A DNA stretch of 48,151 nt, taken from positions 1 to 48,151 of the forward strand of contig JACQEJ010000096.1 in assembly GCA_016200645.1 (NCBI GenBank), read 5' to 3'. A program made the position numbers and the translations under genes. Below are positions 3,435 to 47,958 of the stretch, one piece after another. The number at the start of each line of letters is the position of its first letter. The stretch's first letter is position 1. The notes beneath the pieces were generated by a model that saw only the letters and a program-made list of their open reading frames with translations, searched no databases and was not told the DNA's origin. The DNA comes from Deltaproteobacteria bacterium (GTDB taxonomy: Bacteria; Desulfobacterota; GWC2-55-46; UBA9637).

Positions 3435-4949
3435 TTATTTGGCGAGCCTTTCCTTGACCAGCTTATTCAACACCTGCGGATTTGCCTGTCCCTTGGTCGC
3501 CTTCATGGTCTGACCGATAAAAAAGCTGAAGAGTTTTTCCTTTCCTCCCTTATATTCAGCGACCTCTTTGGGATTGGCGGCAATCACTTCGTCTATCGCC
3601 TTTATCAATGCGCCCTCGTTTGAAATCTGGACAAGCCCTTTCCCCTTTACTATCGCCTCCGGGTCCTTGCCTGTTTTATACACATCCTCAAACACTTCCT
3701 TTGCGGTTTTTAAATTGATACTCCCTGCATCAACCATCTTGAGAAGTTTTGCAAAGGCTGAAGGCTGAATGCTGAAAGTGGAAGGCTGTGTTATATCTTT
3801 GCCGTCCTCTTTGATCAGCCTCAACAACTCCCCCATGACCCAGTTGGACACATTTTTGCCAGCAGTTCCTTGCCCCTTGCCCCTTGCCCCTTGCCCCTCG
3901 TATTTTTGGACGCACTCTTCATAATAATTCGCCAATTCCTTGCTTGCGGTTAAAACACCTGCATCATAGGAAGGGATGCCATATTCTTTTATAAACCTTT
4001 GTCTCTTTTTTGCCGGAAGCTCCGGCAAGGTATTTTTTATCTCCTCTATCCATGCCTCATCAATATGCAAAGGAAGCAGATCGGGTTCAGGAAAATAGCG
4101 GTAATCGTGCGCCTCTTCCTTGCTCCGCATGGAAACGGTTATCCCTTTATCAGAATCAAAGAGCAGTGTTTCCTGAATAACCTTGCCGCCGTCCTCTATA
4201 ACCTCTATCTGTCGGTTTACCTCGTAATCAATTGCCTTTTGCACAAATCTGAATGAGTTCATATTTTTAAGCTCTGTCTTTGTGCCAAATTCTTTCCGGC
4301 CCACAGGCCTTATGGAGACATTTGCATCGCAGCGGAAACTCCCCTCTTCCATGTTGCCGTCGCAAATCTCAAGGTAAACCAGTATGTCCCGGAGCGCTTT
4401 GAGATATTCCACCGCCTCTTCTGAATTGCGAATATCCGGCTCGCTCACAATCTCAATCAGAGGAACGCCAGCCCTATTCAAATCAACAAAGCTAAAATCC
4501 GCATCCTCATAGCTCTCGCCGTGAAGGAGCTTTCCTGCGTCCTCTTCCATGTGTATCCTTGTTATGCCGATGCGCCTTTTTGCGCCGTTTACCCCCACAC
4601 CAAAATCTTTGGTGTGGGGGTTTACTTCAATATCAACATAACCCTTTTGTGTCAGGGGTTGGTCATACTGGGAAATCTGATACCCCTTTGGCAGGTCAGG
4701 ATAAAAATAGTTCTTCCGCGCAAAGATGCTTTTGTCGTTAACCTTGCAATGCGTTGCCAGAGCCATCTTTATGGCATATTCAACCGCTACCCTGTTTAAA
4801 ACAGGGAGCGTTCCGGGCATTCCAAGGCAGACCGGACAGACCTGCGTATTCGCCTCTGCGCCGAATTTTGTGGAACACCTGCAAAAGACCTTTGAGTTTG
4901 TCAAAAGCTGGGCGTGGACTTCAAGACCGATAACGGCTTCATATTGCAT
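3435..4949 (-). CDS. gatB: Asp-tRNA(Asn)/Glu-tRNA(Gln) amidotransferase subunit B
   Basis: [35 protein letters not shown] and a GatB/YqeY tail. 504 aa, longer than typical GatB because of two repeat insertions. Confidence 0.95.
3868..3898. repeat. In-frame AAGGGGC heptamer tract (coding strand) inside gatB
   Basis: Plus strand reads ccttgccccttgccccttgccccttgcccct. Encodes [12 protein letters not shown] in GatB. Confidence 0.9.
4592..4620. repeat. Palindromic element family P1 (CCCCCACACCAAA..TTTGGTGTGGGGG), in frame inside gatB
   Basis: cccccacaccaaaatctttggtgtggggg flanked by gtttac on both sides. Encodes [12 protein letters not shown] between IEV and [19 protein letters not shown]. Confidence 0.9.
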
Positions 4950-5076: not shown

Positions 5077-5226
5077 AAAACCCCAAAAATAGACTTTGAT
5101 TTTTGGGGGAACCTGCAAGTTGCCTGCCAGACGAGGCAGCGGACAATTTTTACGACGAGCCGTATGTTCACCGATACGGTGAGGAGTAAAAATTGTCCGA
5201 TAACGAAGTATGGCAGGCAAATCCTT
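5077..5226 (-). ncRNA. Candidate structured small RNA or leader: three-tier hairpin plus terminator-like hairpin
   Basis: Helices 5120-5129/5211-5220, 5140-5153/5186-5199 and 5160-5165/5174-5179. Then CCCCAAAAAT/ATTTTTGGGG (5081-5090/5099-5108), followed on the minus strand by TTTT. No family recognised; strand inferred from the T-run. Confidence 0.3.
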
Positions 5227-5252
5227 GACAAAATAATAGAGTCATTTACAAT
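5225..5252 (+). promoter_or_regulatory. Sigma70-like promoter for the HPF-CSD gene
   Basis: TTGACA 5225-5230, 16-nt spacer, TACAAT 5247-5252. GGAGG RBS 5275-5279 precedes the ATG at 5286. Confidence 0.45.
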
Positions 5253-5285: not shown

Positions 5286-5822
5286 ATGAAACTTCAATTA
5301 CAGATCACTGCCCGCAATTTTGAACTCACGGACCTTATGAGGGAACATATCCGGGAAAAGGCAGAAAAGCTGGACGGCTTTTACAGCGACATTATGCGCT
5401 GCAGGGTGGTGGTGGAGGTTCCGCACCGCCATAAGCATAAAGGCATATTGTATAATGTGCATATCTATATGACATTGCCAGGCGGAGAGGTGGTAATAAA
5501 ACGCGAACCCGGCGAAGATATATATGTGGCAATAAGAGATGCCTTTGATGCAGCGCGGCGCAAACTGGAGGACTATGCCAGACGGCAGCGCGGTGATATA
5601 AAACGGCACGAAGAAATCCCCCCTGCAAGAATAAGCGCTCTATTCCCGGATAAAGGCTACGGCTTTATAGCCACATCGGACGGCCGGGAAATCTATTTTC
5701 ACGAAAATAGCGTGCTGAATGATGACTTTAAGCATCTGAAGGTTGGGGCAGAGGTGCATTTTGCAGAAGAACAGGGAGAAAAAGGGCCTCAGGCCAGCAC
5801 AGTGAGGATGATAGGAAAATAG
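5286..5822 (+). CDS. hpf: Ribosome hibernation factor (HPF/RaiA family) fused to a C-terminal cold-shock domain
   Basis: The N-terminal ~100 aa resemble HPF/YfiA (ITARNFELTDLMREHIREKAEKL). The C-terminus has CSD RNP-like motifs KGYGFI and IYFHE, and ends GEKGPQASTV. Confidence 0.75.
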   Translation: MKLQLQITARNFELTDLMREHIREKAEKLDGFYSDIMRCRVVVEVPHRHKHKGILYNVHIYMTLPGGEVVIKREPGEDIYVAIRDAFDAARRKLEDYARRQRGDIKRHEEIPPARISALFPDKGYGFIATSDGREIYFHENSVLNDDFKHLKVGAEVHFAEEQGEKGPQASTVRMIGK

Positions 5823-10100: not shown

Positions 10101-10774
10101 CAACCATAGAGCTTCCTCAAACAGAAGAATGGCACGATGCCCAGCTTTTGAGCTATGAGAAAGAAGCGCTCGGTTTTTATATCACCGGACATCCTCTGGA
10201 AAAATATGCGGAAGAGCTGAAGCATCTGGCAAACACCGACACTGATGGGATAAAAGAAAGGCAAGACGATGCAGAGGTGAGCATTGCCGGTATGGTAACG
10301 GCGGTGAAAGAGATAAATACAAAAAAAGGGGACCGGATGGCATTTATCACACTGGAAGATCTTAAGGGTTTTGTTGAGGTGATTGTATTTTCTGATGTGT
10401 ATAAAAATACCGCGCCCTATTTGAGCAGTGAGGCGCCTGTTGTCATAAAAGGCAAGATTGATAAAGGCGAGGAGGATGTAAAAATTATTGCACATACCGT
10501 CTATCCTCTGGAGCAGGCAAAGACAATGATTGTGAATGTTGCTCATATTAAAGCAGATGCGGCAAGACTCGAAACAGTTTCTCTGGAAAAGATAAAAGGG
10601 GTTCTGAGCGCGCATGCAGGCAGCTGTCCTGTATATATTCATCTTGTATGGAGCGACAGGGAAGTGGTGATTGCCGTCCCCGATAAACTCAGGGTTGCTC
10701 CTTCTGAAAAATTTATAAAGGATATCGAAATGCTTCTGGGGGACGGAAGCGTTGTTGTAAATGCAAAATTGTAA
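7199..10774 (+). CDS. dnaE: DNA polymerase III alpha subunit
   Basis: PHP motif FVHLHLHTQYSLLDG, pol III alpha core motifs, C-terminal OB region; 1191 aa. Confidence 0.95.
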   Translation: MQHANFVHLHLHTQYSLLDGAIRHDDLFKLAREYKMPALAMTDHGNMFGAIEFYEKASHHGIKPIIGCEVYVAPGSRFDRTAGRGNKEGAEYEGSHHLILLVKNIKGYRNLCRLATSAYLEGFYYKPRIDKELLKANSEGLIALSSCLHGEIPHLILNGNKEKALKAADEYKAIFNNNRFYLELQDNKLPEQKKVNEGLLEISKKLDVPIVATNDCHYLKREEAKAHDILICIQTGKTVTATDRLKFRTDEFYFKSPQEMETAFSSYPEAIKNTIEIAERCNLDFKLKEHHLPVFPVPDGEDIDIFFEKRAQHGLENRLRGMEQADLSAETPAQAGRVGVKDDGNTAASVQKWRYYERLEKELKVIKAMGFSGYFLIVADFIDFAKKENIPVGPGRGSAAGSLVAYALGITNLDPIQHNLLFERFLNPDRISLPDIDIDFCIEGRDDVIRYVAEKYGKDNVSQIITFGQMKAKAVIRDVGRAMDIPYSEVDRIAKLVPNILNITIDDAMRQEPRLKELSDKDARIKELMDIAKTLEGLPRHASTHAAGVVISNKPLIEYLPLYKAPKEEVVTTQYAMKDVEKIGLVKFDFLGLKTLTVIDRVVKLLKQKGIELDIENVRLDDTETYKLLSSGNTNGIFQLESSGIKELLRKLKPSDFEDIMSVVALYRPGPLQSGMVDDFIKRKHGKAAIKYELPQLKEMLANTYGVIVYQEQVMEIAKVLAGFSPGDADVLRKAMGKKLPEEMVVQRERFIEGAKKNKVEQKKAEKIFDLMANFAGYGFNKSHSAAYALIAYQTAYLKAHYPVEFMAALLTADMGNTDNVIKYIGECREMAIEILPPDVNESRMDFTVTSPSIPLVEGDRGRIRFGLAAVKNVGSAAIDVILKARKDGGPFASIVDFCTKVDLRKVNRRVIESLIKCGAFDSLGAKRARLMASIDKVMDISQATQRERENGQISIFQTIGGGNSGTATIELPQTEEWHDAQLLSYEKEALGFYITGHPLEKYAEELKHLANTDTDGIKERQDDAEVSIAGMVTAVKEINTKKGDRMAFITLEDLKGFVEVIVFSDVYKNTAPYLSSEAPVVIKGKIDKGEEDVKIIAHTVYPLEQAKTMIVNVAHIKADAARLETVSLEKIKGVLSAHAGSCPVYIHLVWSDREVVIAVPDKLRVAPSEKFIKDIEMLLGDGSVVVNAKL
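9747..9787. repeat. Palindromic element family P2 (CCCCCTCGTG core), in frame inside dnaE
   Basis: cctccccctctatccccctcgtggagggggacagggggagg. Encodes TSPSIPLVEGDRGR just before the conserved IRFGLAAVKNVG. Confidence 0.8.
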
Positions 10775-10775
10775 A

Positions 10776-10880
10776 CCCCCACACCTTGACCCCCACACCA
10801 AAGATTTTGGTGTGGGGGCAAGGAAGAAAAGAAGTAACCCTGCGCCAAGAGCGCAGGGCATTCCCAACAAGGTGTGGGGG
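10776..10880. repeat. Nested structured element after the dnaE stop: outer stem enclosing a P1 palindrome and a GC hairpin
   Basis: Outer arms cccccacaccttg (10776-10788) and caaggtgtggggg (10868-10880). Inner P1 palindrome 10790-10818. Hairpin ccctgcgc/gcgcaggg 10838-10858. Confidence 0.85.
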
Positions 10881-10892
10881 TAAATTGAATGG

Positions 10893-12039: not shown

Positions 12040-14211
12040 ATGGACGACTTAAAAAAAATAACAGAACTCAGGGCAAAGATAGATGTCATTGACGACAAGA
12101 TTCTGGACCTCCTGAATAAGAGAGCGCGTCTTGTCATTGAGGTTGGCAAGGAAAAGGTAGAGGGGAAAAGGGATTTTTATGCGCCTGAAAGAGAAAAGGA
12201 GATATACAAAAGGTTGACCGGGAAGAATCCCGGGCCTTTTCCCAATCAAGCGTTAAAGAATGTATTCAGGGAGATTATGTCCGCTTCCCTTTCCCTGGAA
12301 CGACCTTTAAAGGCTAGTTATTTCGGTCCAAAGGCCACCTTTACCCATCAGGCGTGTATGGAGTATTTTGGCCTTTCCGCAGAATTTGTCCCTGAAAAGG
12401 ATATTGCAGATGTGTTTGAAGATGTGGAGAGGGGGAAGACAGATTTTGGCGTGGTGCCTATAGAAAATACCATAGAAGGGGTTGTAAGCCATACCATTGA
12501 CATGTTCGTAACCTCTGATATAAAGATATGCGGGGAGATAATTATGGAGGTATCCCTTTCCCTTTTAAATAAAACCGGCAGGATTGAAGATGTAAAAAAG
12601 ATATGTTCCTACCCCCATGCCATCGCTGAGTGTAGAGAGTGGCTCAGGGAGCATGTTCCGGATATTCCGGTTTTTGATGTGTCTTCAACGGCAATGGCTG
12701 CACAGACCGCAAGCGAAGATCCGTCAGCCGCTGCCATTGCCAGTGAATTTGCGGCAGCCATCTATGATCTGCAGGTTGTTGAAAGAAAGATAGAAGACCA
12801 TACAAATAATTTTACGAGATTTCTTGTTATCGGGAAGAAAAGCCCTGAAAGAAGCGGCGATGACAAGACATCTATCATGTTTGCAGTAAAGGATGTCCCT
12901 GGCGCGCTGTACAGGATTCTTAAACCATTTGCAGAAAAAGGGATAAATCTTACCAAGATTGAATCCAGGCCGCAAAAGGGCAAGGCATGGGAATATATAT
13001 TCTTTGCGGATATGGACGGCCATGTCTCGGACAGCAAGGTGTCCGATGCGCTCAAGGAGCTTGAGGCGCAGTGTTCTTTTATGAAGATACTGGAGGCCTT
13101 AGTTCCATATCCGCCTGGCAAGCCTATGGAAGAGCTTGAGAGGGAGTTGGGGATAAAAAATTCCATCAAACTTGCGTCCAATGAAAACCCGCTTGGGCCT
13201 TCGCCTAAGGCTGTGGAGGCTGTGGCAAAGGCGCTCAAAAATCTCCACAGGTATCCTGATGGCGGATGTTATTATCTCAAGGAAAAGCTGGCTCAGCGTC
13301 TCAAGGTGAAGCCGGAGAATCTCATCATCGGCAACGGCTCCAATGAAATCATTGAGCTTGTCATCAGGACATTTTTAAGACCGGGCGATGAGGCGGTCAT
13401 GGGCAACCCGTCGTTTGCCGTATATCCGCTGGTTGTGCCTGCGGCAGGCGGAAAGAGCGTGCTCGTGCCTTTAAAAAATCTGACCCACGATTTGGATGCA
13501 ATGTTTGACGCGATAACGGAAAATACAAAATTGGTATTCATTGCAAACCCGAACAATCCCACAGGCACAATGAATACCAAGGCGCAGCTTGATAAATTTA
13601 TCGGCAGGTTGCGTAACGATATAATCCTTATTCTGGATGAGGCGTATTATGAATTTGTTACGGATAAGGATTTCCCCGCTTCTTTGGATTATTTAAACAG
13701 CGGCAAGAATATTGTGATACTCAGGACATTTTCAAAGATTTACGGCCTCGCAGGTTTGCGCGTAGGCTACGGCATTGCGCCTGAAAAGCTCAACTTTTAC
13801 ATGAATAAGGTGCGGCAGCCCTTTAATGTAAACAGCCTCGCCCAGATTGCTGCGATGGCTGCCTTGGATGATGACGAGCATCTAAAAAGGTCTCAGCGAA
13901 ATAACAGGGAAGGGCTTGCGTATCTCTTTGGAGAGTTAAAGGCAATGGGGCTTGAGTGCGTGCCTACGCAGGCGAATTTCTTTCTTATCAAGGTGGGCAA
14001 AGGCAAAGATGTTTACCCCCACACCAAAAATTTTGGTGTGGGGGTTTACGATGCGCTTTTAAGACAGGGCGTGATTGTCCGACCGATGGCAAGTTACGGC
14101 CTCGGCGAATACATCCGCGTTACCGTGGGACTGCCTGAGGAGAATAAGAGGTTTGTGGAGGCATTGAAAAAGACAGTAAACAGTAGACAGGAAAAAGATG
14201 GTAGAGGGTAG
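12040..14211 (+). CDS. pheA: Fusion protein: chorismate mutase / prephenate dehydratase / ACT domain + histidinol-phosphate/aromatic aminotransferase (HisC-like)
   Basis: CM helix LRAKIDVIDDKILDLLNKRA. PDT motif YFGPKATFTHQA. ACT motif TSIMFAVKDVPGALYRIL. Then LVPYPPGKP..KLASNENPLGPSP and FSKIYGLAGLRVGY (PLP-lysine motif) with no intervening stop; 723 aa. Confidence 0.85.
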   Translation: MDDLKKITELRAKIDVIDDKILDLLNKRARLVIEVGKEKVEGKRDFYAPEREKEIYKRLTGKNPGPFPNQALKNVFREIMSASLSLERPLKASYFGPKATFTHQACMEYFGLSAEFVPEKDIADVFEDVERGKTDFGVVPIENTIEGVVSHTIDMFVTSDIKICGEIIMEVSLSLLNKTGRIEDVKKICSYPHAIAECREWLREHVPDIPVFDVSSTAMAAQTASEDPSAAAIASEFAAAIYDLQVVERKIEDHTNNFTRFLVIGKKSPERSGDDKTSIMFAVKDVPGALYRILKPFAEKGINLTKIESRPQKGKAWEYIFFADMDGHVSDSKVSDALKELEAQCSFMKILEALVPYPPGKPMEELERELGIKNSIKLASNENPLGPSPKAVEAVAKALKNLHRYPDGGCYYLKEKLAQRLKVKPENLIIGNGSNEIIELVIRTFLRPGDEAVMGNPSFAVYPLVVPAAGGKSVLVPLKNLTHDLDAMFDAITENTKLVFIANPNNPTGTMNTKAQLDKFIGRLRNDIILILDEAYYEFVTDKDFPASLDYLNSGKNIVILRTFSKIYGLAGLRVGYGIAPEKLNFYMNKVRQPFNVNSLAQIAAMAALDDDEHLKRSQRNNREGLAYLFGELKAMGLECVPTQANFFLIKVGKGKDVYPHTKNFGVGVYDALLRQGVIVRPMASYGLGEYIRVTVGLPEENKRFVEALKKTVNSRQEKDGRG
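14016..14044. repeat. Palindromic element family P1, in frame inside the aminotransferase part of the fusion gene
   Basis: cccccacaccaaaaattttggtgtggggg, again flanked by gtttac on both sides. Encodes YPHTKNFGVGVY. Confidence 0.9.
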
Positions 14212-21734: not shown

Positions 21735-22566
21735 ACATGCCGGTTTTTGTTTTGGCGTCAAAAGGGCGATAAATATGGCACAGGATTGCGTTAGAGAGGC
21801 TGCCGGCAATATTTATACACTTGGCCCGATTATCCATAATCCTCAGGTTGTTAAAGAGTTGGAGGAATCTGGCATATCCAAGGCAGACAAAGTTGAAGAA
21901 ATAAATAATGGGACTGTTATAGTGCGCTCTCACGGAGTTACATCACATGAAATAGAGACTATAAAAGAAAAGGGGCTCAAGGTTGTTGATGCAACATGTC
22001 CTTTTGTTAAAAAGACCCATGACTATGTAGAGCTATTAACCAGAGAAGGGTATTCCGTAATTGTTGTGGGGGAAAAAGAGCATCCTGAGGTCAGGGGTAT
22101 TTTGAGTTACGGCGCAAAGGATATAATTGCAGCCGCTTCGGTAGAGGACTTAAAAGCTATGCCGAGAAAGAAAAGAATCGGTATCGTGGCGCAGACAACT
22201 CAATCCATAGAGAACCTTCAAGCGGTAGTCGCCCACTGCCTCAAAAAGGCATCAGAGCTTAAGATATTTAACACAATATGCAATGCGACATCCGTGAGGC
22301 AGCAGGAATCGATAGAGCTTGCAAAACAGGTGGAGTGCATGATTGTGGTCGGCGGCAGGAACAGCGCCAATACCAACCGCCTGGCGGAAATTTGCAGAAA
22401 GATTCAGCCCAAAACCTATCATATAGAGGTGCCGGAGGAATTGAATCAAATACATTTTAGCGGCGCAAAAAATGTTGGCATAACAGCAGGAGCATCTACT
22501 CCGAACTGGATAATAGAAAAGGTGATAGAGGCGATACGGCTTAAAGCCGGCAATGCTTCAGGCTGA
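21715..22566 (+). CDS. ispH: 4-hydroxy-3-methylbut-2-enyl diphosphate reductase
   Basis: AGFCFGVKRAI, CPFV and NTICNAT motifs (the three cluster cysteines); 283 aa. Confidence 0.9.
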   Translation: MEILIAKHAGFCFGVKRAINMAQDCVREAAGNIYTLGPIIHNPQVVKELEESGISKADKVEEINNGTVIVRSHGVTSHEIETIKEKGLKVVDATCPFVKKTHDYVELLTREGYSVIVVGEKEHPEVRGILSYGAKDIIAAASVEDLKAMPRKKRIGIVAQTTQSIENLQAVVAHCLKKASELKIFNTICNATSVRQQESIELAKQVECMIVVGGRNSANTNRLAEICRKIQPKTYHIEVPEELNQIHFSGAKNVGITAGASTPNWIIEKVIEAIRLKAGNASG

Positions 22567-23172: not shown

Positions 23173-23447
23173 TATTTGTTCACCGAATCTTTTAATATCT
23201 GACTGGCTTTAAATGTTAAAACCCTTCTTGCTGTTATTGTCAGGTCATTCCCTGTTTGCGGATTTCTTCCCCTCCTTGCCCTCTTTTGCCGTGCCATGAA
23301 ATTTCCAAAACCGGATATTTTGACATTCTCTCCTTGTTCAAGGGACTTTTTTATGGACTCAAATACAAGTTCCACTACATCTGTCACATCTTTTTTGGAG
23401 AAGCCGACTTTTTCAAAGATATTCTCTACAATGTCCGCCTTAGTCAT
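23172..23447 (-). CDS. ihfA: Integration host factor alpha subunit / HU-family DNA-binding protein
   Basis: MTKADIVE..GFGNFMARQKRARRGRNPQTG, the typical IHF-alpha arm; 91 aa. Confidence 0.85.
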   Translation of the reverse strand: MTKADIVENIFEKVGFSKKDVTDVVELVFESIKKSLEQGENVKISGFGNFMARQKRARRGRNPQTGNDLTITARRVLTFKASQILKDSVNK

Positions 23448-25903
23448 TTGATGCCTCCTTCCTCTCCTCTAATTTCTATGCCGAATTTATCTTTTAAGCC
23501 TTTTAATATTGCCAAGTGGGCGCTATTCACTTCCTCATCGGTCAATGTTCTATCCGGAGAACGATACAGAAAGCGAAGGGCGATGCTCACTTTGTCTTGC
23601 GGGATATGTTCACCGTAGTATACATCAAAAACATTAACTTCTTCAAGGAGTTTCATATCCAGCGCTTTGACAAAATGATAAACCTCCTGGAACGAAATCT
23701 CCTTATCTATTATCATTGCCGCATCCCTGACTATCGTAGGATATGTAGGGAGAGAAGCGTATCTTTTTTTTCTGTGGGAAGCTATGAGAATGGCATTCAT
23801 GCCAAGCTCAAATATATGCACAGGCTGTTTGATATCCAGCCGCTGCATGGCATCAGGATGAATTTCTCCTATTATTCCGAGTCTCCGGTTGGATACCTCA
23901 ATCACAGCGGCCTTGCCAGGGTGCAGGAACGGGATATCTCCCCTGGGGATAAAGGCATACCTGTCAATGCCCAGCCCTGTCAAAACCTGTTCCGCTGCGC
24001 CTTTTATATCGTAAAAATCCGCAGCCTCCCTGCCGGTATTCCATGCCTCGCCGTATCTGAGGCCGCTTATCAAACCGCTTACGAGCTCCCTCTCTTCGGT
24101 TTCCTTCCCCTTTGGGATAAATATCTTGCCGATCTCAAAAATCTTTATGTCGCGATTATTGTAATTCAAATTATACTGCAGGGTTTGCAAAAGACAGGGG
24201 ATAAGACTCTGCCTCATCACAGATTGTTCGTCTGTTAATGGATTTATCAGCGCCAATCCGCTTTTTATATCAGGTGTTGTAATCTCAAAAAACTTTGGTG
24301 ACAGAAAGCTATAATTGACAGCCTCGAGAAAACCATTGTTGATTAAAATATCCCTCGCCTTTTCTCTTAGCAAATCCGCCCCTTTTGTTTTACGGGTTGA
24401 TAATCCTGCTGCCGGAAGGATGGCGGGGATATTTTCATAGCCGTAGAGCCTTGCAATTTCTTCTATGATATCTATCTCTTTGAGCAAGTCCACCCTGAAC
24501 GCAGGCGGTATAACATTCCATGCCGTCTGCTGCCTGCTGCCTGTTGCCTTACAGGCGATGCTGAGTCTCTTCAAGCAATCCTCAACCTCTTTTTTCTTTA
24601 TATCAATGCCGAGGAGTTTATTTATTCGGGAAAGTCTTACTTTAATCGCTGCGGGTTTGTGCGGCCTGGGGTATTTATCAACGGCTCCATCTGCTATATT
24701 TCCGCCTGCCAGTGCAGCGATCATCCGGGCAGCCCTGTCCAATGCCTTTGCCACGCCCTCTATGTCGGCGCCCCGCTCAAATCTGTAAGATGACTCGGTA
24801 GAAATCCCCAATGCCTTTGATGTCCTCCGCACACAGGCAGGATCAAAATATGCGCTCTCCAGCAGGATATTTTTTGTTGTCTCCCGTATCTCCGATCCCT
24901 TTCCGCCCATAATCCCTGCCAGGGCAACAGGCCTCTCCTTATCAGCAATAACAAGCATATCCCTGGTAAGCGCCCTGTCAATGCCATCAAGGGTCTGAAG
25001 CCTTTCATTTTCTTTCGCCATTCTTACCACGATCTGTTTGCCGGAAATAAGGTCGTAGTCAAACGCATGCAAGGGGTGGCCGTATTCGAGCATCACATAA
25101 TTGGTCGCATCCACCACATTGTTTATTGCTCTGAAGCCGAGAAACTCAAGTCTCTGCTTAAGCCAGACCGGCGAAGGGCCGATTTGAACATTTTCAATAA
25201 TCTGCGCGGCATATCGTCTGCAAAGAGAAGGTTCAGCAATGGAAACGTACGGGAGTTTTGTGTGTTGCGTTTTGCGTTTTGCGTTTTTACTCCTGACTCC
25301 TGACTTCTGACTCCTGACCGTAGCGCCTGTTATCGCGGCTATTTCTCTGGCAATCCCAATAATGGATAAACAATCCGGCCTGTTCGGCGTGACATTTATA
25401 TTGAAGATAAAATCATTTAAACCGGTTGCCTCTGTAAAATTTTTGCCGATGGGAAAATCTTGCGGCAGAATCATTATGCCAACCCCCTCGTGCCCCCCTT
25501 TTTCTAAAGGGGGGACGTGGGGGGTTAGCCCCAACTCAGCTTCGGAACACATCATGCCTTCGGATTCCACGCCCCTTATCTTTGTCTTCTCTATTTTTAT
25601 GCCTTTGGGCAACGTTGCCCCGGGAAGCGCCAGAGCGACTTTGTCGCCTGCCTTCATATTTTTTGCGCCGCAGACAATGGAGTGGACCCCTTTATCGGTC
25701 TTTACCTTGCAGAATGAAAGCCTGTCGGCATTTGGATGTTTTTCTACAGAGAGGATTTGGGCTATCACAACACCTTTTATATCTTTACCCGGCGCCTCAA
25801 TGCCTTCCACCTCAAAACCAGCCATGGTTAATTGTTCAGCCAGTTGAACAGGTGAGGGAATCGCTCTTATATATTCTTTAAGCCAGTTGTAGCTTATCTT
25901 CAT
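23444..25903 (-). CDS. pheT: Phenylalanine--tRNA ligase beta subunit
   Basis: MKISYNWLKEY N-terminus, tRNA-binding, B3/4, B5 and FDX-ACB regions. 819 aa, including two repeat insertions. Confidence 0.95.
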   Translation of the reverse strand: MKISYNWLKEYIRAIPSPVQLAEQLTMAGFEVEGIEAPGKDIKGVVIAQILSVEKHPNADRLSFCKVKTDKGVHSIVCGAKNMKAGDKVALALPGATLPKGIKIEKTKIRGVESEGMMCSEAELGLTPHVPPLEKGGHEGVGIMILPQDFPIGKNFTEATGLNDFIFNINVTPNRPDCLSIIGIAREIAAITGATVRSQKSGVRSKNAKRKTQHTKLPYVSIAEPSLCRRYAAQIIENVQIGPSPVWLKQRLEFLGFRAINNVVDATNYVMLEYGHPLHAFDYDLISGKQIVVRMAKENERLQTLDGIDRALTRDMLVIADKERPVALAGIMGGKGSEIRETTKNILLESAYFDPACVRRTSKALGISTESSYRFERGADIEGVAKALDRAARMIAALAGGNIADGAVDKYPRPHKPAAIKVRLSRINKLLGIDIKKKEVEDCLKRLSIACKATGSRQQTAWNVIPPAFRVDLLKEIDIIEEIARLYGYENIPAILPAAGLSTRKTKGADLLREKARDILINNGFLEAVNYSFLSPKFFEITTPDIKSGLALINPLTDEQSVMRQSLIPCLLQTLQYNLNYNNRDIKIFEIGKIFIPKGKETEERELVSGLISGLRYGEAWNTGREAADFYDIKGAAEQVLTGLGIDRYAFIPRGDIPFLHPGKAAVIEVSNRRLGIIGEIHPDAMQRLDIKQPVHIFELGMNAILIASHRKKRYASLPTYPTIVRDAAMIIDKEISFQEVYHFVKALDMKLLEEVNVFDVYYGEHIPQDKVSIALRFLYRSPDRTLTDEEVNSAHLAILKGLKDKFGIEIRGEEGGIK
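25267..25318. repeat. In-frame tandem heptamers (GCGTTTT)x3 + (CTCCTGA)x4 inside pheT
   Basis: gcgttttgcgttttgcgtttttactcctgactcctgacttctgactcctgac. Encodes VRSQKSGVRSKNAKRKTQ on the minus strand. Confidence 0.9.
25481..25526. repeat. Palindromic element family P2, in frame inside pheT
   Basis: aaccccctcgtgcccccctttttctaaaggggggacgtggggggtt. Encodes TPHVPPLEKGGHEGVG after the conserved MCSEAELGL. Confidence 0.85.
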
Positions 25904-34079: not shown

Positions 34080-37000
34080 TTTTGTATGCCGCAACCCTGT
34101 CTCCGCCTATCCCCCTGGCTTCTGCCAGCGCCTTGCGGGCCGCTGTCATAAATCCTTCCAGGTTATGGGCATCATCAAGATATGTCGCCACCCCAACGCA
34201 CGCGCTTATCTTTCCTCCGGGCTGGTTTTCCGCATTGTAAAAAGGGTAACTCTCAATAATAGTTTTGAATCTCTTTGCCAGCTGCAGGGCAGGGGATTTT
34301 GGCGTATTGGGGAGGAGTATCGCCAGCTCATCCCTCCCGTATCTCACTGCCGTATCATAACCCCGGAGTGTCTTTTTTATCAGCTCCGCTGTCTTTCTCA
34401 GCACGGCATTGCCGTGAAACTCTCCATTTCTGCCGATATACCCAGGAAGGTCGTCTATAGCTATCATCAAGAGGGAGCATGATTGTTTGTATCTGTCCAC
34501 CCTCTTTATCTCCTGACCCAGCCTGATATTCAGATAACGGTGATTAAAAAGCCCGGTAATCTCATCCACCAGTCCCGCCCTTTTCGGGTAGAGGTATTCC
34601 AGCTCCCTTATCTGCTCTACCAGATATTCTTTTGAGAAAGAGCCCCGCTGGATAACCCGGTCAATGTATCCCATAACCTTAAGCCTTTCGTCAATCTCCA
34701 TCTCCTTTTCAGTCAGGAGAAATACAGGTATTCCATGGGTTGCCGGGGTGGTTTTTAATTTATGTATGATATCAAAACTGCTGATGCCGTCGTCCAGGCC
34801 GTTAAACATTATATCAATGATGATAATATCCGGTTTGGCAACCAGGGCAAGCTCAATGCCTTCCCCCCCGCTCTTCACGCTTGATACGGAAAACCCTTCG
34901 ACTTCTAATGTTGAGGTTAAAAGTTTTACCATCTCCTCATCTTTCTCTATCAGGAGGATGCTGGCGGGTTGTCTCGATTTTCTGAACATGGGTCTGAATT
35001 CATTGAGCCTTTGAATAAGCCTGGCGCCGTCCACAGGTTTTATGAGATAATCCGCCGCGCCGAGGACAAAACCAAGCTCTTTGTTATCTATGATTGAATT
35101 TATGATGACAGGAATATCTTTTGTCTCCTCGCCGCTCTTTAATGTCTGCAGCACCTCCCAGCCGTCTTTGTTGGGGAGCATGATATCAAGGGTTATGGCA
35201 AAGGGCTTTAACACCCGCGCCTTCTTAACGGCGTCATTTCCGTCAAAGGCATGGGCAACAGAGTAGCCTGCCTTTACCAGATGGATGGTGATAAGCTCGG
35301 ATGTGGGAGGGTCATCCTCCACCACCAGCACCAGAGGCGCATTTGCTTTACCATCACACCAACCAGGTTGGTGTGATGGTAAATCCTGCAAATGCCCCTC
35401 AACAACCGGCAGAGGATGGCTGATGGCAGAGGCTTTAGGCTGAGATCCTTGAAAAGCATCGGAGGCGGCCATCGGCAGGACAAAGCCGAAGGTAGAACCC
35501 TGACCGAACCGGCTTTCAGCCCATATCATCCCGCCGTGGAGCTCCACCAGTCTTTTGGTCAGCGCAAGGCCTAGTCCCAGCCCCTCGTGCCTTCTGGAAT
35601 AACTCCCGTCCACCTGTTCAAACTCCTCAAAGAGCCGTTCCATATCATTCGGTTTTATACCGATGCCGGTATCAATAACTGAAATCTTTAGCCATGAAGC
35701 CGGAAACGGCGGACTGGCTGCAGAAAAGGATTTTCCCGATCCTCCGCTTCCTGCTTCCCACATCCCGGCTTGAAGAATAACTTTGCCATTCTGAGGGGTA
35801 AATTTGATTGCATTGCTTAAAAGATTGTAGAGTATCTGCTTGAATTTTATCCCGTCTGCCGTTATCTCCGGCAGGTCCGGGTTTAATTGTAATTCAAGGG
35901 TTACCCCATGTTTATTAGCCAGCGGCTGCACAATGCCCAGCACTTCATTCACGATGGCTGAAAGGGGGAAAGTGGAATAATCCAGGGTCATCTTGCCCGC
36001 CTCTATTTTTGCGATATCCAGGATATTATTGATAAGCTGCAGGAGATGCCTGCCTGATGTCAGGACATTATTTATATATCTCGCCTGTTTATCATTCAGG
36101 CTGCCAAAGGTATCGGTCAAGAGAATCTCTGAAAAACCTAAGATAGAATTGAGCGGTGTTCTCAACTCATGGCTCATATTGGTGATAAACTGGTTTTTGA
36201 CCTTGTCCGACCTTTCCAGTTGTTTATTGGCCTTCTCCAACTCCATTGTCCTTTCCAGTATCCTCTCCTCGAGCCTGTCGTTAATCTCTTTCAGCTCCCT
36301 GTTCTTTTTATCTATTTCGAGCCGTATCTTTTTTTCTTCCGTTATATCCTTGCTGATGCCAACGGTTCCGATCACCTTTCCCGTCCAATTGCCCAGCTGG
36401 GAAAGGGTAAGGCTTATGTCAACGATCCTCCCGTCCTTTGCCACAAGCTGGGTTTCATAATTGGAGATACTATCTTCCTTTTCCAGCTTGCTCAGTATGT
36501 TATTCCTTTCATCCCTGTTGCGGTACAGTGTGGATACAGCTCTGCCGATGACCTCATCTCTCCTATATCCAAGAATTGTTTCTGCCCCCCGGTTAAATTC
36601 AACAATCTTTCCCTCGGTATCGGTAGTGATGATGACATCAGCCGAGTCATTTAAGACATTTTTCAGATAATCCTTTGCCTCAAGGAGGGCGTCGTTTTTA
36701 TCCTCCAATTCTTTCAGAAGCTGAAATTTTTCTATGGCAAAGGTGGCCTGGGCTCCGAGCAGACTCAGGAAAGATATTTCGTTTGAGGTAAACCTGCGTG
36801 GTTTAAAATCATCTATGTAGAGGATGCCGATGATGCGGCTGTTGGCAAGAAGCGGTATGGCGATGAGAGACCTTATGCCTTCATCAAGCATGAGCGGGTT
36901 ATTGAACAGAGGCTCTTTTTTTATATCAGATATGACAACGGGCTTTCTTGCGCCGAGGATGTGGCTGGTCATGCCGTTTGGCCTTGCCTTCCATCTGTCA

Positions 37001-39061: not shown

Positions 39062-39091
39062 CCCCCACACCAAAAGATTTTGGTGTGGGGG
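39062..39091. repeat. Palindromic element family P1 in the cysM 5' leader
   Basis: cccccacaccaaaagattttggtgtggggg, about 30 nt upstream of the cysM ATG. Confidence 0.9.
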
Positions 39092-39119: not shown

Positions 39120-40073
39120 ATGGGCAGGCATCCTGCTTTTGATTCACAAAAAGTTATATGGGATTTAAGGCAGCCGCGGCAAACTATCGTTGAAATGGTC
39201 GGCAATACGCCGCTGGTTAAGATAAACAGGATTACCAAACACCTCCCGGAATCGGTAGAGATTTACGCAAAGGTTGAGGCGTATAATCCAGGCGGGTCTG
39301 TAAAAGACAGGGCTGCCAAGCGGATGATTGAGGATGCGGAAAAGAGCGGCAGGCTTACAAAGGATAAGATAATCCTTGATTCAACATCCGGCAACACCGG
39401 GATTGCATACGCATGGATCGGCGCGGTAAAGGGTTACGGCGTTGAGCTGGTGGTGCCTCAAAATGTGAGCGAAGAGAGGAAGAAGATACTCAGGGCATTC
39501 GGCGCAAAGGTGGTATTTTCAAATCCTCTGGAGGGTTCGGACGGCGCTATAAGGCTTGCATGGAAACTCTATGTAGACAATCCGGATAAATACTGCAAGC
39601 TTGACCAGTATAATAACCCATCCAACCCTCAGGCCCATTATGATACAACAGGCCCAGAAATCATAGAGCAGACGGACGGCAGAATCACCCATTTTGTGGC
39701 AAGCATTGGAACCAGCGGCACTATCATGGGCACGGGGAGGAGAATGAAGGAATATAATCCTGCCATACAGGTGATACAGGTGGAACCTGCAACCCCTCTC
39801 CACGGTCTGGAAGGATTAAAGCATATGGCTACCTCCATTGTCCCGGGCATATATCATCCGGAAAAATTGGACGGCAAGGTATCCGCGCCAACGGAAGAGT
39901 CGTATGACATGGCAAAGAGGCTTGCGCGGGAGGAAGGGCTTTTTGTGGGCCAGTCGTCCGGCGCCGCCATGTGGGGCGCCCTGGAGGCGGCAAAGAATCT
40001 GAAGGAGGGTCTTATCGTGGTTTTATTCCCCGACGGGGGAGACAGGTATCTTTCTACGAGGCTGTGGGAGTAA
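39120..40073 (+). CDS. cysM: Cysteine synthase, CysM-like PLP enzyme
   Basis: NPGGSVKDRAA (PLP lysine), STSGNTGIAYAW and GTSGTIMG motifs; 317 aa. Confidence 0.85.
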   Translation: MGRHPAFDSQKVIWDLRQPRQTIVEMVGNTPLVKINRITKHLPESVEIYAKVEAYNPGGSVKDRAAKRMIEDAEKSGRLTKDKIILDSTSGNTGIAYAWIGAVKGYGVELVVPQNVSEERKKILRAFGAKVVFSNPLEGSDGAIRLAWKLYVDNPDKYCKLDQYNNPSNPQAHYDTTGPEIIEQTDGRITHFVASIGTSGTIMGTGRRMKEYNPAIQVIQVEPATPLHGLEGLKHMATSIVPGIYHPEKLDGKVSAPTEESYDMAKRLAREEGLFVGQSSGAAMWGALEAAKNLKEGLIVVLFPDGGDRYLSTRLWE

Positions 40074-40153
40074 AACAGTCTAAAAGTTGTTAGTCTACAA
40101 GCCTACAAGTTTTAAAACTTTTAGTCTAACGACTTGTAGGCTCTTAGGCTGTA
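40072..40153. repeat. 82-nt structured element, copy 1 (upstream of the JAMM gene)
   Basis: aaaacagtctaaaagttgttagtctacaagcctacaagttttaaaacttttagtctaacgacttgtaggc... Near-identical to 40610-40692. Confidence 0.9.
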
Positions 40154-40160
40154 TTTAATT

Positions 40161-40622
40161 ATGCTTTCTTTTCCTCAAAATATTTACAACGAAATAATCA
40201 ACCATGCCAAAGAGACGTATCCCTACGAGGCGTGCGGCGCATTGGCGGGAAAACAAAAACAAGGGTCAGGGCGGGTGCCCTCTGGGCGCGGTCAAGGGTC
40301 AAGAACCGAAAAGGATGTTTTGAAATTTTATAGTATGGAGAATATCAACAAGGACAGGGCGAATGACCGGTATGAGATAAATCCTAAAGAATTATTGAAG
40401 ATTGAAAAAGAGGCAAAAGCAAACGGTCTGCAGGTAATTGGTTTCTATCATTCCCATCCCGATCACCCTGACAGGCCTTCGGCCTTGGACAAGGAAAGGG
40501 CATGGCCATTGTATTCGTATGTAATTATTGCCGTTCATAACGGAAGAGATGTTTCCGTAAAGTCCTGGACATTTGAAGATGAGAGAGAACCTTTTAGAGA
40601 AGAGGAGGTAAAAACAGTCTAA
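40161..40622 (+). CDS. mec: JAMM/MPN+ metallopeptidase (Mec-like)
   Basis: EACG..., HSHPDHPDRPSALD (JAMM HxHx7Sx2D motif). 153 aa, including a repeat-derived insertion. Confidence 0.8.
   Translation: MLSFPQNIYNEIINHAKETYPYEACGALAGKQKQGSGRVPSGRGQGSRTEKDVLKFYSMENINKDRANDRYEINPKELLKIEKEAKANGLQVIGFYHSHPDHPDRPSALDKERAWPLYSYVIIAVHNGRDVSVKSWTFEDEREPFREEEVKTV
40272..40291. repeat. Family P3 core 20-mer, in frame inside the JAMM gene
   Basis: cgggtgccctctgggcgcgg is the exact reverse complement of 30384-30403. It is flanked by GGTCAAG-type words. The insert encodes about QGSGRVPSGRGQGS. Confidence 0.9.
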
Positions 40623-40692
40623 AAGTTGTTAGTCTACAAGACTACGAGTTTTAAAACTTTTAGTCTAACGACTTGTAGACTTTTAGTCTGTA
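40610..40692. repeat. 82-nt structured element, copy 2 (downstream of the JAMM gene)
   Basis: About 6 differences from copy 1 by eye. Supplies the last JAMM codons and the stop (aaaacagtctaa). Confidence 0.9.
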
Positions 40693-42891: not shown

Positions 42892-42906
42892 GGATGGGGA
42901 TATGAG

Positions 42907-43010
42907 CCCCGTTAGACCTAAAAGCAAGAGGCTTTGCTTCAATCGATTGGTACGGAGAACAGTTTAAAAGTGAAGTGGGCAGCAATTATTTTAAAGGAGG
43001 TCTAACGGGG
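42907..43010 (+). promoter_or_regulatory. Long-range 13-bp helix sequestering the RBS/start of the permease gene
   Basis: ccccgttagacct (42907-42919) is perfectly complementary to aggtctaacgggg (42998-43010). The latter overlaps the GGAGG SD and the first base of the GTG start. Confidence 0.45.
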
Positions 43011-44437
43011 TGAGAATAGAGATAGACCGGCGCCCCATCTGGCTCATCATTATCTTAAGAAGTTTTAGGCCTATATTTTTTCTGACCATAGGGCTCATCT
43101 TCTTTTACCTGATCAACCTTCCTACACCGGACGGCTTGACAATCCAGGGACAGCGGGCAATTGCTCTGTTTACCGTATGCCTCATTTTATGGGTTACCGG
43201 CATGCTGCCGCTTGCCATAACCAGTCTTCTGGCGATTGTAACAGTTCCTCTGCTGGGGATACTGGATAAGAAAGAGACCTATGCGCTGTTCGGCAATGAG
43301 GCGGTCTTTTTTATCTTAGGGGCATTTATACTTTCCGGCGCCGTGATGCATTCGGGGCTGTCCGGCCGCATAGCTCTGGCGATAATGAACAGATTTGGAG
43401 GCACCCCGAAGGGGCTGCTTGCTTCCATATTCCTCCTGGCTTCGGCTTTGTCATTTTTCATGTCAGAACATGCGGTAGCGGCTATGCTCTTTCCCATTGT
43501 GCTGGACATTGCAAAGGGTTTGAATCTGAGGCCCGGCAGATCAAATTATGCAAAGTCTCTTTTTCTTGCCCTCGCGTGGGGGTGTATTATCGGAGGCGTT
43601 GCGACATTTCTCGGAGGGGCGCGGGTTCCGCTTGCCGTCGGTATGCTGAAGGAGGCAACAGGCATAACCATTGATTTCCTGGAATATACCGTCATCGTGT
43701 TCCCGACTGTGGTGATGCTGCTCGTGATAGGTTATCTTGGGCTGACAAGATTTTTCCCCCCGGATATAGAAGACATGCATCTGGCAAAAACCGTATTTGA
43801 AAGAAAGATGAAAGAGATGGGAAAGATAGGATATCTGGAATATGCAGTAGGCGCTGTCATGGCGGCAACAATACTTTTCTGGCTGTTTTTCGGCAGAAGC
43901 CTGGGCATAGCGAATATAGCCATTGTCTCGGTGGTCGGGCTTTTCATATTAAAGCTGGTTAGATGGAAGGACATTGAGGAGTATGTGAACTGGGGCATAA
44001 TCCTGATGTACGGCGGCGCAATAACATTGGGCGCGGCAATGGAAAAGTCCGGGGCGGCGGCATGGATGGCCAATGCGGCAATCGGAAATGGCATAAGCAG
44101 CCCTCTTGTAGTTATAGCAATATTTTCTCTTTTGACAATTCTCTTAACGGAAGGCATGAGCAACGCCGCTGTCATAGCAATCCTGCTGCCCGTCGGCATT
44201 GGCATGGCCTCCCGATTCAATATGGAGCCGAGGCTTATTACCTATGCCATAGCAGTTCCGGCAGGACTGGCATTTTGTTTTCCAATGTCAACGCCTGCAA
44301 ATGCCATTGCTGTATCATCAGGTTACATAACGACAAAGGATATGGCAAAGGCAGGCATTGTCATGATGATTTTGGCATGGCTTGTATTTAATCTGACGGC
44401 GCGATTTTATTGGCCGATAATAGGCATCAGGCTATAG
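43010..44437 (+). CDS. DASS/SLC13-type anion permease (ArsB/NhaD superfamily), putative sulfate/anion symporter
   Basis: 475 aa, about 12 hydrophobic segments. GTG start 9 nt after GGAGG. The sulfate role is inferred only from neighbours. Confidence 0.75.
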   Translation: MRIEIDRRPIWLIIILRSFRPIFFLTIGLIFFYLINLPTPDGLTIQGQRAIALFTVCLILWVTGMLPLAITSLLAIVTVPLLGILDKKETYALFGNEAVFFILGAFILSGAVMHSGLSGRIALAIMNRFGGTPKGLLASIFLLASALSFFMSEHAVAAMLFPIVLDIAKGLNLRPGRSNYAKSLFLALAWGCIIGGVATFLGGARVPLAVGMLKEATGITIDFLEYTVIVFPTVVMLLVIGYLGLTRFFPPDIEDMHLAKTVFERKMKEMGKIGYLEYAVGAVMAATILFWLFFGRSLGIANIAIVSVVGLFILKLVRWKDIEEYVNWGIILMYGGAITLGAAMEKSGAAAWMANAAIGNGISSPLVVIAIFSLLTILLTEGMSNAAVIAILLPVGIGMASRFNMEPRLITYAIAVPAGLAFCFPMSTPANAIAVSSGYITTKDMAKAGIVMMILAWLVFNLTARFYWPIIGIRL

Positions 44438-47928: not shown

Positions 47929-47958
47929 ACCCCGTTACTTGAGTTCAAGTAACGGGGT
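47929..47958. repeat. Near-perfect 14-bp palindromic hairpin
   Basis: accccgttacttga-gt-tcaagtaacggggt. Shares taacggggtg with the permease leader at 43003-43012. Confidence 0.7.

Follow-up and report, generated by a model that had tools for sequence, protein, structure and literature searches.

The 48,151-nt window analysed here is an entire NCBI contig (JACQEJ010000096.1) of a metagenome-assembled genome (MAG) labelled "Deltaproteobacteria bacterium". Its gatB gene and the HisC part of the open reading frame (ORF) at 12040-14211 each contain, in frame, the same short palindrome, CCCCCACACCAAA-N3/4-TTTGGTGTGGGGG, referred to below as P1. A sequence-only reading of this DNA had described a five-locus palindrome family. 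Four of its loci hold perfect copies, whose arms are 13-nt perfect inverted repeats, and the fifth holds a diverged palindrome that is a possible member of the family. The features that concern P1 are listed here; TSD stands for target-site duplication and MITE for miniature inverted-repeat transposable element.

3435-4949, minus strand: host gene gatB, with the insert between two predicted beta-strands
4588-4591: left TSD of the gatB P1, TTTA (coding strand TAAA)
4592-4620: P1, 29 nt, in frame in gatB; adds 11 residues together with one TSD copy
4621-4624: right TSD of the gatB P1, TTTA
10776-10880: 105-bp MITE with ends CCCCCACACCTTG / CAAGGTGTGGGGG, flanked by TAAA at 10772-10775 and 10881-10884
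10790-10818: P1, 29 nt, nested in the 105-bp MITE after dnaE; reverse complement of the gatB copy
14012-14015: left TSD of the hisC P1, TTTA
14016-14044: P1, 29 nt, in frame in the HisC part of ORF 12040-14211; adds YPHTKNFGVGV
14045-14048: right TSD of the hisC P1, TTTA
35347-35383: diverged perfect palindrome TTTACCATCACACCAACC-A-GGTTGGTGTGATGGTAAA, 18-bp stem
39062-39091: P1, 30 nt with a 4-nt loop, intergenic, 29 nt upstream of the PALP (CysK/CysM-type) ORF 39120-40073

With up to two mismatches allowed, ten P1 half-sites were found in the window against 1.25 expected, a number reached in none of 100 shuffles. The four perfect copies account for eight of these with their arms; the matches at 22060 and 42290, which have no partner arm, were rejected as chance. 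None of the perfect copies contains a stop codon in any of the six frames, and the ORF translations bear out the earlier claim that P1 is read in frame in both genes (around the HisC insert the translation runs ...GKDVYPHTKNFGVGVYDALL and, over a longer stretch, ...GKGKDVYPHTKNFGVGVYDALLRQG). ORF 12040-14211 is a single open frame covering chorismate mutase, prephenate dehydratase, ACT and HisC, while the public annotation gives a separate 376-residue HisC (P0121); the ORF may be a true fusion, or HisC may have an internal start. The palindrome at 35347-35383 shares the core CACACCAA with P1, has CCATC/GATGG in place of CCCCC/GGGGG, and lies in a hybrid kinase/GGDEF protein, within the linker between the HATPase and receiver domains. 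It may be a P1 relative.

The first line of evidence for the mobility of P1 comes from orthologous sites. As anticipated, both inserts are lineage-specific: they occur in 0 of the 59 closest GatB homologues and 0 of the 59 closest HisC homologues examined. Among the 60 best matches to GatB, only the window protein has the insert; the nearest homologue, at 87% identity, reads IQVNDAEKR at this site, and most others read IEVNG..., while the nearest HisC homologue, at 90% identity, reads GKGKEVYDALL. No solved GatB structure contains the insert, all of them showing a 10-residue gap there. At the DNA level, a gatB orthologue (84% protein identity) has the empty site GAG G-TAAA-T GGT, and the window gene has the filled site GAA G-TAAA-[CCCCCACACCAAAGATTTTGGTGTGGGGG]-TAAA-C GGC. 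Comparison of the two thus gives the gain as 29 nt plus a second TAAA, i.e., 33 nt (11 codons). Orthologous sites with and without the element, a hallmark of MITEs, are in this way available at the DNA level for gatB and at the protein level for both GatB and HisC. Judged from these alignments, the gatB and hisC copies are recent insertions. In an AlphaFold2 model of GatB (mean pLDDT 79.7), residues 110-121 have pLDDT below 50 and lie between strands 100-108 and 124-143; the insert is predicted to form an extended turn between two beta-strands.

The same TAAA of gatB was hit in another organism. There, an in-frame 173-nt composite of a sister family, which has the terminal repeat CCCCGTTAGA, adds 59 residues (a CCCCGTTAGAAG-type MITE; L119 ~665-845, Logan SRR13554776 contig) and includes a nested second copy with its own CAAA TSD. 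Two independent insertions at one TAAA demonstrate both mobility and target preference. A further irregularity of gatB lies at 3868-3900 (minus strand), where the heptamer GGGGCAA is repeated four times and encodes QGARGKGQG. A matching insert of 12-24 residues is limited to the closest GatB homologues, and this region is for that reason regarded as a second lineage-specific insertion in the gene.

The second line of evidence is the duplication of target DNA. One genome per GTDB species was scanned for P1, which yielded at least 114 contig stretches with 120 copies among the matches listed; for the analysis of flanks, P1 was bounded as CCCCC...GGGGG, and right flanks were shuffled in 2000 permutation trials. 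Identical 4-mers are present on both flanks of 45 of the 120 listed copies, where permutation gives 8 on average and never more than 17. Position-wise identity between flanks is 0.60-0.72 in the 4-nt register and at background in the other registers. At least nine kinds of 4-mer are duplicated (TTTA/TAAA, TGAA/TTCA, CAAG/CTTG, TTGA/TCAA, TTAA, CCTG, TATT, CGAG and TCTA); they vary among copies, the flanks of each pair co-vary, and the sequence further out is unrelated. The target can be reconstructed as (G)-T-W-W-A-(C), in which T occupies position 1 and A position 4 in 82% of sites each. On this evidence the flank is a 4-bp TSD with the consensus T-W-W-A. The sequence-only reading had offered two explanations of the GTTTAC on either side of the coding copies, a target duplication or a fixed element end. 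Duplication is the one that stands, at 4 bp (TTTA/TAAA), and the outer G and C do not belong to it: once the TSD is resolved, GTTTAC decomposes into G, TTTA and the first C of the element, the outer G being a weak target preference.

The flanks also bear on a different route of movement, by which a P1 hairpin would travel as single-stranded DNA under the action of an HUH/Y1 enzyme, either a transposase associated with repetitive extragenic palindromes (RAYT) or one like those of insertion sequences IS200/IS605, so that the flank would be a cleavage-site motif and no true duplication. A length of 27-31 nt falls within the range of repetitive extragenic palindromes (REPs), and P1 as DNA forms a perfect, stable hairpin (-16 kcal/mol, z = -5 to -7), in which arm mutations are mostly compensated; moreover, no autonomous element bearing terminal inverted repeats (TIRs) was found in the fetched loci. 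The 4-mers next to P1, however, are diverse yet matched within a copy, as expected from a staggered cut. P1 lacks the GTAG or CGTC tag, about a quarter of its copies are inside genes, and the longer members of its family have unrelated interiors bounded by inverted termini alone. In our opinion, single-strand transposition is an unlikely origin for P1.

These longer members provide the third line of evidence. The P1 copy previously placed after dnaE is indeed located there; it is not free-standing, being nested in the 105-bp element at 10776-10880, the terminal 10 nt of which are the same as those of P1 and the left TAAA of which (10772-10775) includes the dnaE stop codon. A metagenome scan built to leave out 27-31-nt palindromes returned at least 120 stretches, and those listed are mostly longer elements that have P1 termini, CCCCCACACC, and the 4-bp duplication. 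The same 10-nt core, serving as the terminal repeat of a MITE would, is found at the ends of elements ranging from 26 to ~127 bp. Among the matches listed, 26 of 66 non-redundant longer elements have a perfect duplication. BLAST searches with the interiors found no relatives, so each interior is unique, and the interiors are unrelated to each other; where a longer element lies in an ORF, it reads NPHTK...(variable)...FGVGV. By its termini, P1 belongs to a MITE family that shares the terminal repeat CCCCCACACC, and it is the smallest of its members.

It should be noted that a continuous series of sizes from 26 to ~127 bp with identical termini could also arise if the 29-nt palindromes were immobile, each a collapse product left when the interior of a longer MITE was deleted between its inverted repeats after insertion; the difficulty of synapsis on a 29-bp duplex would then pose no problem. 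We regard such collapse as quite improbable, given that loop variants (AAAATCTTT, AAAAATTTT, AATGCATT and others) reappear unchanged at numerous unrelated sites in several phyla and that the 29-nt form is dominant, with 66 of the 120 listed copies. Furthermore, the P1 arms in the window are identical, but the inner TIR bases of the 105-bp element are TTG, not AAA.

The lengths of the elements suit a life within reading frames. A length of 3n+2 was observed in 47 of the 66 non-redundant longer elements listed (binomial p = 3.6e-10) and in 32 of the 50 listed elements that are not obviously inside an ORF (p = 9e-6); with such a length, element and 4-bp duplication together make a multiple of three, and the frame is kept. 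For P1 itself, the modal 29 + 4 = 33 nt (11 codons) and the stop-free sequence mean that insertion into an ORF only adds a short peptide. About one third of the listed P1 copies are within long ORFs. All 30 of the P1-spanning ORFs tested against Pfam are ordinary, real genes, and, with gatB and hisC included, verified genes hold at least 32 of the 120 listed copies. The host genes include those for PutA, a P-type ATPase, PheT (twice), UvrD, HypF, PolX, RecJ, Nnr, GuaA, Mur ligases, DegT, glycosyltransferases, DprA, TruB, MiaA, KsgA, FolD, Lgt and HolB, among others. P1 is read in all three frames, most commonly as PHTK-x-FGVG, then as PPHQ-x-FWCGG and PTPK-x-LVWG. Alignment with solved structures revealed an 11-residue insert in FolD of a Giovannonibacteria member of the candidate phyla radiation (CPR) and a 10-residue insert in a DegT aminotransferase of Nealsonbacteria.

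The use of three frames with three different peptides is hard to reconcile with P1 being a selected functional hairpin (a terminator, protein-binding site or conserved peptide motif, for instance) that does not move. Its sequence is strikingly conserved across phyla, and T-rich sequence follows some of the intergenic copies found elsewhere, both of which might suggest such a function. In the window, by contrast, no copy is terminator-like or followed by a T tract: a terminator scan, which looks for a GC-rich stem with a T tract, reported no window P1 copy. An Rfam scan of the window detected three tRNAs only and no family matching P1. Absence from orthologues, flanking duplications and insertion polymorphism count against a selected function as well, making it a very remote prospect.

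Older copies decay as coding sequence, as exemplified by the copy in GuaA of locus L003. Locus L176 has two decayed copies, at 3795-3830 and 5495-5535, which read FFLPPHQNFGSGD and KPYPHYQVSGVGVYKN* and are situated in adjacent glycolytic-type genes, enolase-like and phosphoglycerate-mutase-like as judged from translations alone. In these two copies the palindrome erodes while the peptide persists.

In the scanned genomes, P1 was found in at least 83 different assemblies (species-level MAGs) from many phyla, at loci with a GC content of 33-70%, which answers the question of whether the motif is abundant elsewhere. Host labels comprise Saccharibacteria, Parcubacteria and many other CPR groups, Omnitrophota, Planctomycetota including Brocadiaceae, Deltaproteobacteria/Thermodesulfobacteriota, Methylomirabilota, Nitrospira, Spirochaetia, Clostridia and Gammaproteobacteria; one contig, by its label alone, is from Nanoarchaeota. 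Identical variants, loop included, recur across these host groups, with lengths of 27-31 nt. This lack of host specificity, the longer MITEs with shared termini and the nesting of the dnaE copy in one of them all go beyond the sequence-only reading. Its central proposal, a selfish palindromic repeat tolerated in frame in the manner of the Rickettsia palindromic elements (RPEs), is supported by the absence of P1 from homologues, by the empty site and by this abundance. P1 copies are often near the ends of MAG contigs, which raises the question of an assembly or sequencing artefact. Such a location is expected, since repeats break assemblies; P1 has also been recovered by independent projects from 2015 to 2025 with assemblers that include IDBA-UD, MEGAHIT and SPAdes, frames are preserved in conserved genes, and target duplications are present. 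The artefact explanation is, to us, barely credible.

No P1 match was found among PLSDB plasmids or INPHARED (GenBank) phages, and in IMG/VR viral contigs P1 is rare, with only four palindrome matches, which have 7-nt loops. Half-site matches in viral contigs were rejected, being mostly chance or an unrelated phage upstream region. The latter is represented by phage and marine contigs L262 (7635-7700), L254, L137 and L152, which have TTAACCCCCACACCAAAACTTTAAGGA in common just upstream of an ORF that starts with MKKY in L262 and L254, MIK in L137 and MTL in L152; the L262 ORF includes the stretch MKKYQIIYADPPW, methyltransferase-like as judged from its translation. TTAACCCCCACACCAAAACTTTAAGGA is a solo match and is unrelated to the MITE. 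Some genomes carry P1 within larger repeat units, 100-170 nt long, that recur at several contig ends, as in Saccharibacteria CAYNAP01 (L067, L080, L083, L093, L074), where the unit adjoins a variant palindrome, CCCTCCCACCAAA..TTTGGTGGGAGGG, and in DYHX01 (L017, L020, L023, L026, L039).

Taken together, P1 is a real, ultra-small MITE that is tolerated in frame. The 4-bp duplication at T-W-W-A, the inverted termini beginning with CCCC, the non-autonomy, the frame-neutral length and the stop-free character can all be read directly from the sequences. In our view P1 is probably a non-autonomous mini-transposon made of two 13-nt TIRs that inserts at T-W-W-A with a 4-bp TSD and is mobilised in trans by an enzyme of IS1380/piggyBac type. 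The two TIRs are joined head to head through a spacer of 1-4 nt and constitute the whole element. A cut-and-paste DDE/DDD transposase supplied in trans would make a 4-bp staggered cut at T-W-W-A, often G-TWWA-C, and repair would duplicate the four bases; CCCC termini combined with a 4-bp T..A duplication are best accommodated by a DDE/DDD transposase of IS1380/piggyBac type, the IS1380 family having CC ends and a 4-5 bp duplication in the ISfinder family table. Insertions would then survive where the host protein tolerates them, as at the predicted turn between beta-strands of GatB.

Several observations weigh against this mechanism. The search for an autonomous element covered solo half-sites, TIR pairs 0.8-3.5 kb apart, solo ends in metagenome loci and recurring ORFs; within ~1.5 Mb of fetched loci it found neither an autonomous element nor a transposase with matching TIRs, no ORF family recurs beside the P1 copies of these loci, and no transposon-like unit was found near them, no reference transposase having been compared. 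Two candidates were discarded: translations show a membrane protein and a SecY-like gene in L003 5010-7219, and L176 3799-5526 turned out to be the interval bounded by the two decayed P1 copies described above. Canonical piggyBac targets are TTAA, which is a minority among P1 targets, TTTA/TAAA being dominant. Perfect duplications flank only 45 of the 120 listed copies, and the window copy at 39062-39091 has no TSD at all (flanks TTCA/ATTC). A 29-bp duplex is too short for conventional pairing of ends. Finally, changes in the arms are mostly mirrored, as seen in T...A, A...T and G...C termini, in CCCTCCCACC/GGTGGGAGGG and CCCCGCACC/GGTGCGGGG, and in CCATC/GATGG in the window, and such mirroring is not required of an ordinary MITE with two TIRs.

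A speculative way to accommodate the last two points is that each strand of P1 folds into a hairpin, giving a cruciform in which each hairpin mimics one transposon end. The two hairpins might in this way place two "ends" next to each other, with a topology equal to that of a linear element. Ends of this kind would explain the mirrored arm mutations.

P1 can be compared with several known systems. Like P1, RPEs are dispersed palindromic repeats that occur in frame in unrelated housekeeping genes, adding a short peptide while the host protein is kept (PMC10969869). They are set apart by size and hosts, being ~100-150 bp long and confined to Rickettsia, whereas P1 is 29 nt long, has a 4-bp duplication and occurs in many phyla; thus, P1 is a palindromic in-frame ORF insertion of the RPE kind that has neither the RPE size nor a Rickettsia host (Desulfobacterota, CPR and others instead). 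According to a 2024 review, MITEs measure 50-500 bp and RPEs ~150 bp (PMC10969869); at 27-31 nt P1 is below the MITE range, and its longer relatives are within it. Prokaryotic MITEs (Correia, Chunjie, QMITE and others) resemble the P1 family in their TIRs, TSD of fixed length, high copy number, non-coding nature and size variants. Unlike the usual MITEs, P1 consists of two TIRs and 1-4 nt only, has mirrored arm changes and 3n+2 lengths, and has no known parent insertion sequence.

The piggyBac elements duplicate TTAA (variants TAAA, TCAA and others) and have TIRs that start with CCC (PMC10813416); they have been paired with IS1380-like bacterial elements (PMC5718144). P1 has the corresponding 4-bp T..A duplication and CCCC(C) termini. 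It differs in preferring TTTA/TAAA over TTAA, and no such transposase is linked to it; the relation is one of resemblance and not of shown membership. In size, the nearest system is that of the small dispersed repeats (SDRs) of heterocystous cyanobacteria, reported by Elhai et al. in 2008, which are said to be mobile and hairpin-forming, 21-27 nt long, and sometimes nested or within genes, with a mobilisation mechanism that reportedly was not established. As far as these accounts go, their sequences and hosts differ from those of P1, and we know of no 4-bp T-W-W-A duplication, longer TIR series or cross-phylum spread among SDRs. REPs and REPINs, which are mobilised by RAYTs, share with P1 the presence of 20-40-nt palindromes in many copies, and REPs are not known to have a target duplication. 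REPs are described as extragenic and as having a GTAG or CGTC tag (PMC3733652). P1, by contrast, has CCCCC/GGGGG ends with neither tag, copies within genes and a target duplication. No description of P1, by its arm strings or as a MITE of CPR, was found in the open-access papers and preprints searched; the literature matches to the arms were coincidences, including a Lactobacillus type I-E CRISPR repeat with a common 10-mer.

The window also contains two elements with termini of the sister family.

42907-43010: sister-family MITE, 104 bp, terminal repeat CCCCGTTAGACCT; TSD TGAG at 42903-42906 and 43011-43014
47930-47957: minimal sister-family palindrome CCCCGTTACTTGA-GT-TCAAGTAACGGGG, 28 nt, flanks TAAA/TGAA

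In the first of these, AAAGGAGG stands ~10 nt before the GTG at 43010, where a DASS/CitMHS transporter ORF starts; going by this arrangement, the MITE may supply the ribosome-binding site and start codon of the transporter. Other repeats of the window are of separate interest. Near-identical repeats of ~60 nt at 40080-40147 and 40619-40686 lie on both sides of ORF 40161-40622 and contain the palindrome AG(C/A)CTAC(A/G)AGTTTTAAAACTTTTAGTCT. A 52-nt imperfect palindrome, GCCAACCCCCTCGTGCCCCCCTTT / AAAGGGGGGACGTGGGGGGTTAGC, is found at 25478-25529 inside the minus-strand ORF 23444-25903. The 68-nt intergenic stretch at 5149-5216 is 97% identical to L073 1889-1956 of Deltaproteobacteria bacterium GWF2_42_12 and is just upstream of a strong promoter-like site (5225-5252) and of the S30AE/cold-shock-domain ORF 5286-5822.

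A more far-reaching view of P1 may be put forward tentatively, as a possibility of rather low probability. According to it, P1, 29 bp of two fused ends, would rank among the smallest transposable elements yet found, and the palindrome would be required because each strand's hairpin, or a cruciform, takes the place of one transposon end in the transposase complex. The lineage would have evolved, or been filtered, to 3n+2 lengths and stop-free sequence for life in genes, and would spread horizontally among CPR and co-occurring groundwater phyla, adding 11-residue loops to essential proteins.

The existence of P1 moves the lower size limit of transposable DNA to ~30 bp and raises the mechanistic question of how two ends just 3 nt apart undergo synapsis. 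Element lengths tuned to open frames are a direct signature of selection on a parasite in gene-dense, streamlined genomes. P1 also marks horizontal exchange between CPR/Patescibacteria and co-occurring phyla, and it is one source of the short lineage-specific inserts in conserved proteins of uncultured bacteria, which makes such inserts relevant to annotation, alignment-based phylogenomics and structure prediction. Should its excision be precise, like that of piggyBac, P1 insertions would be reversible protein variants.

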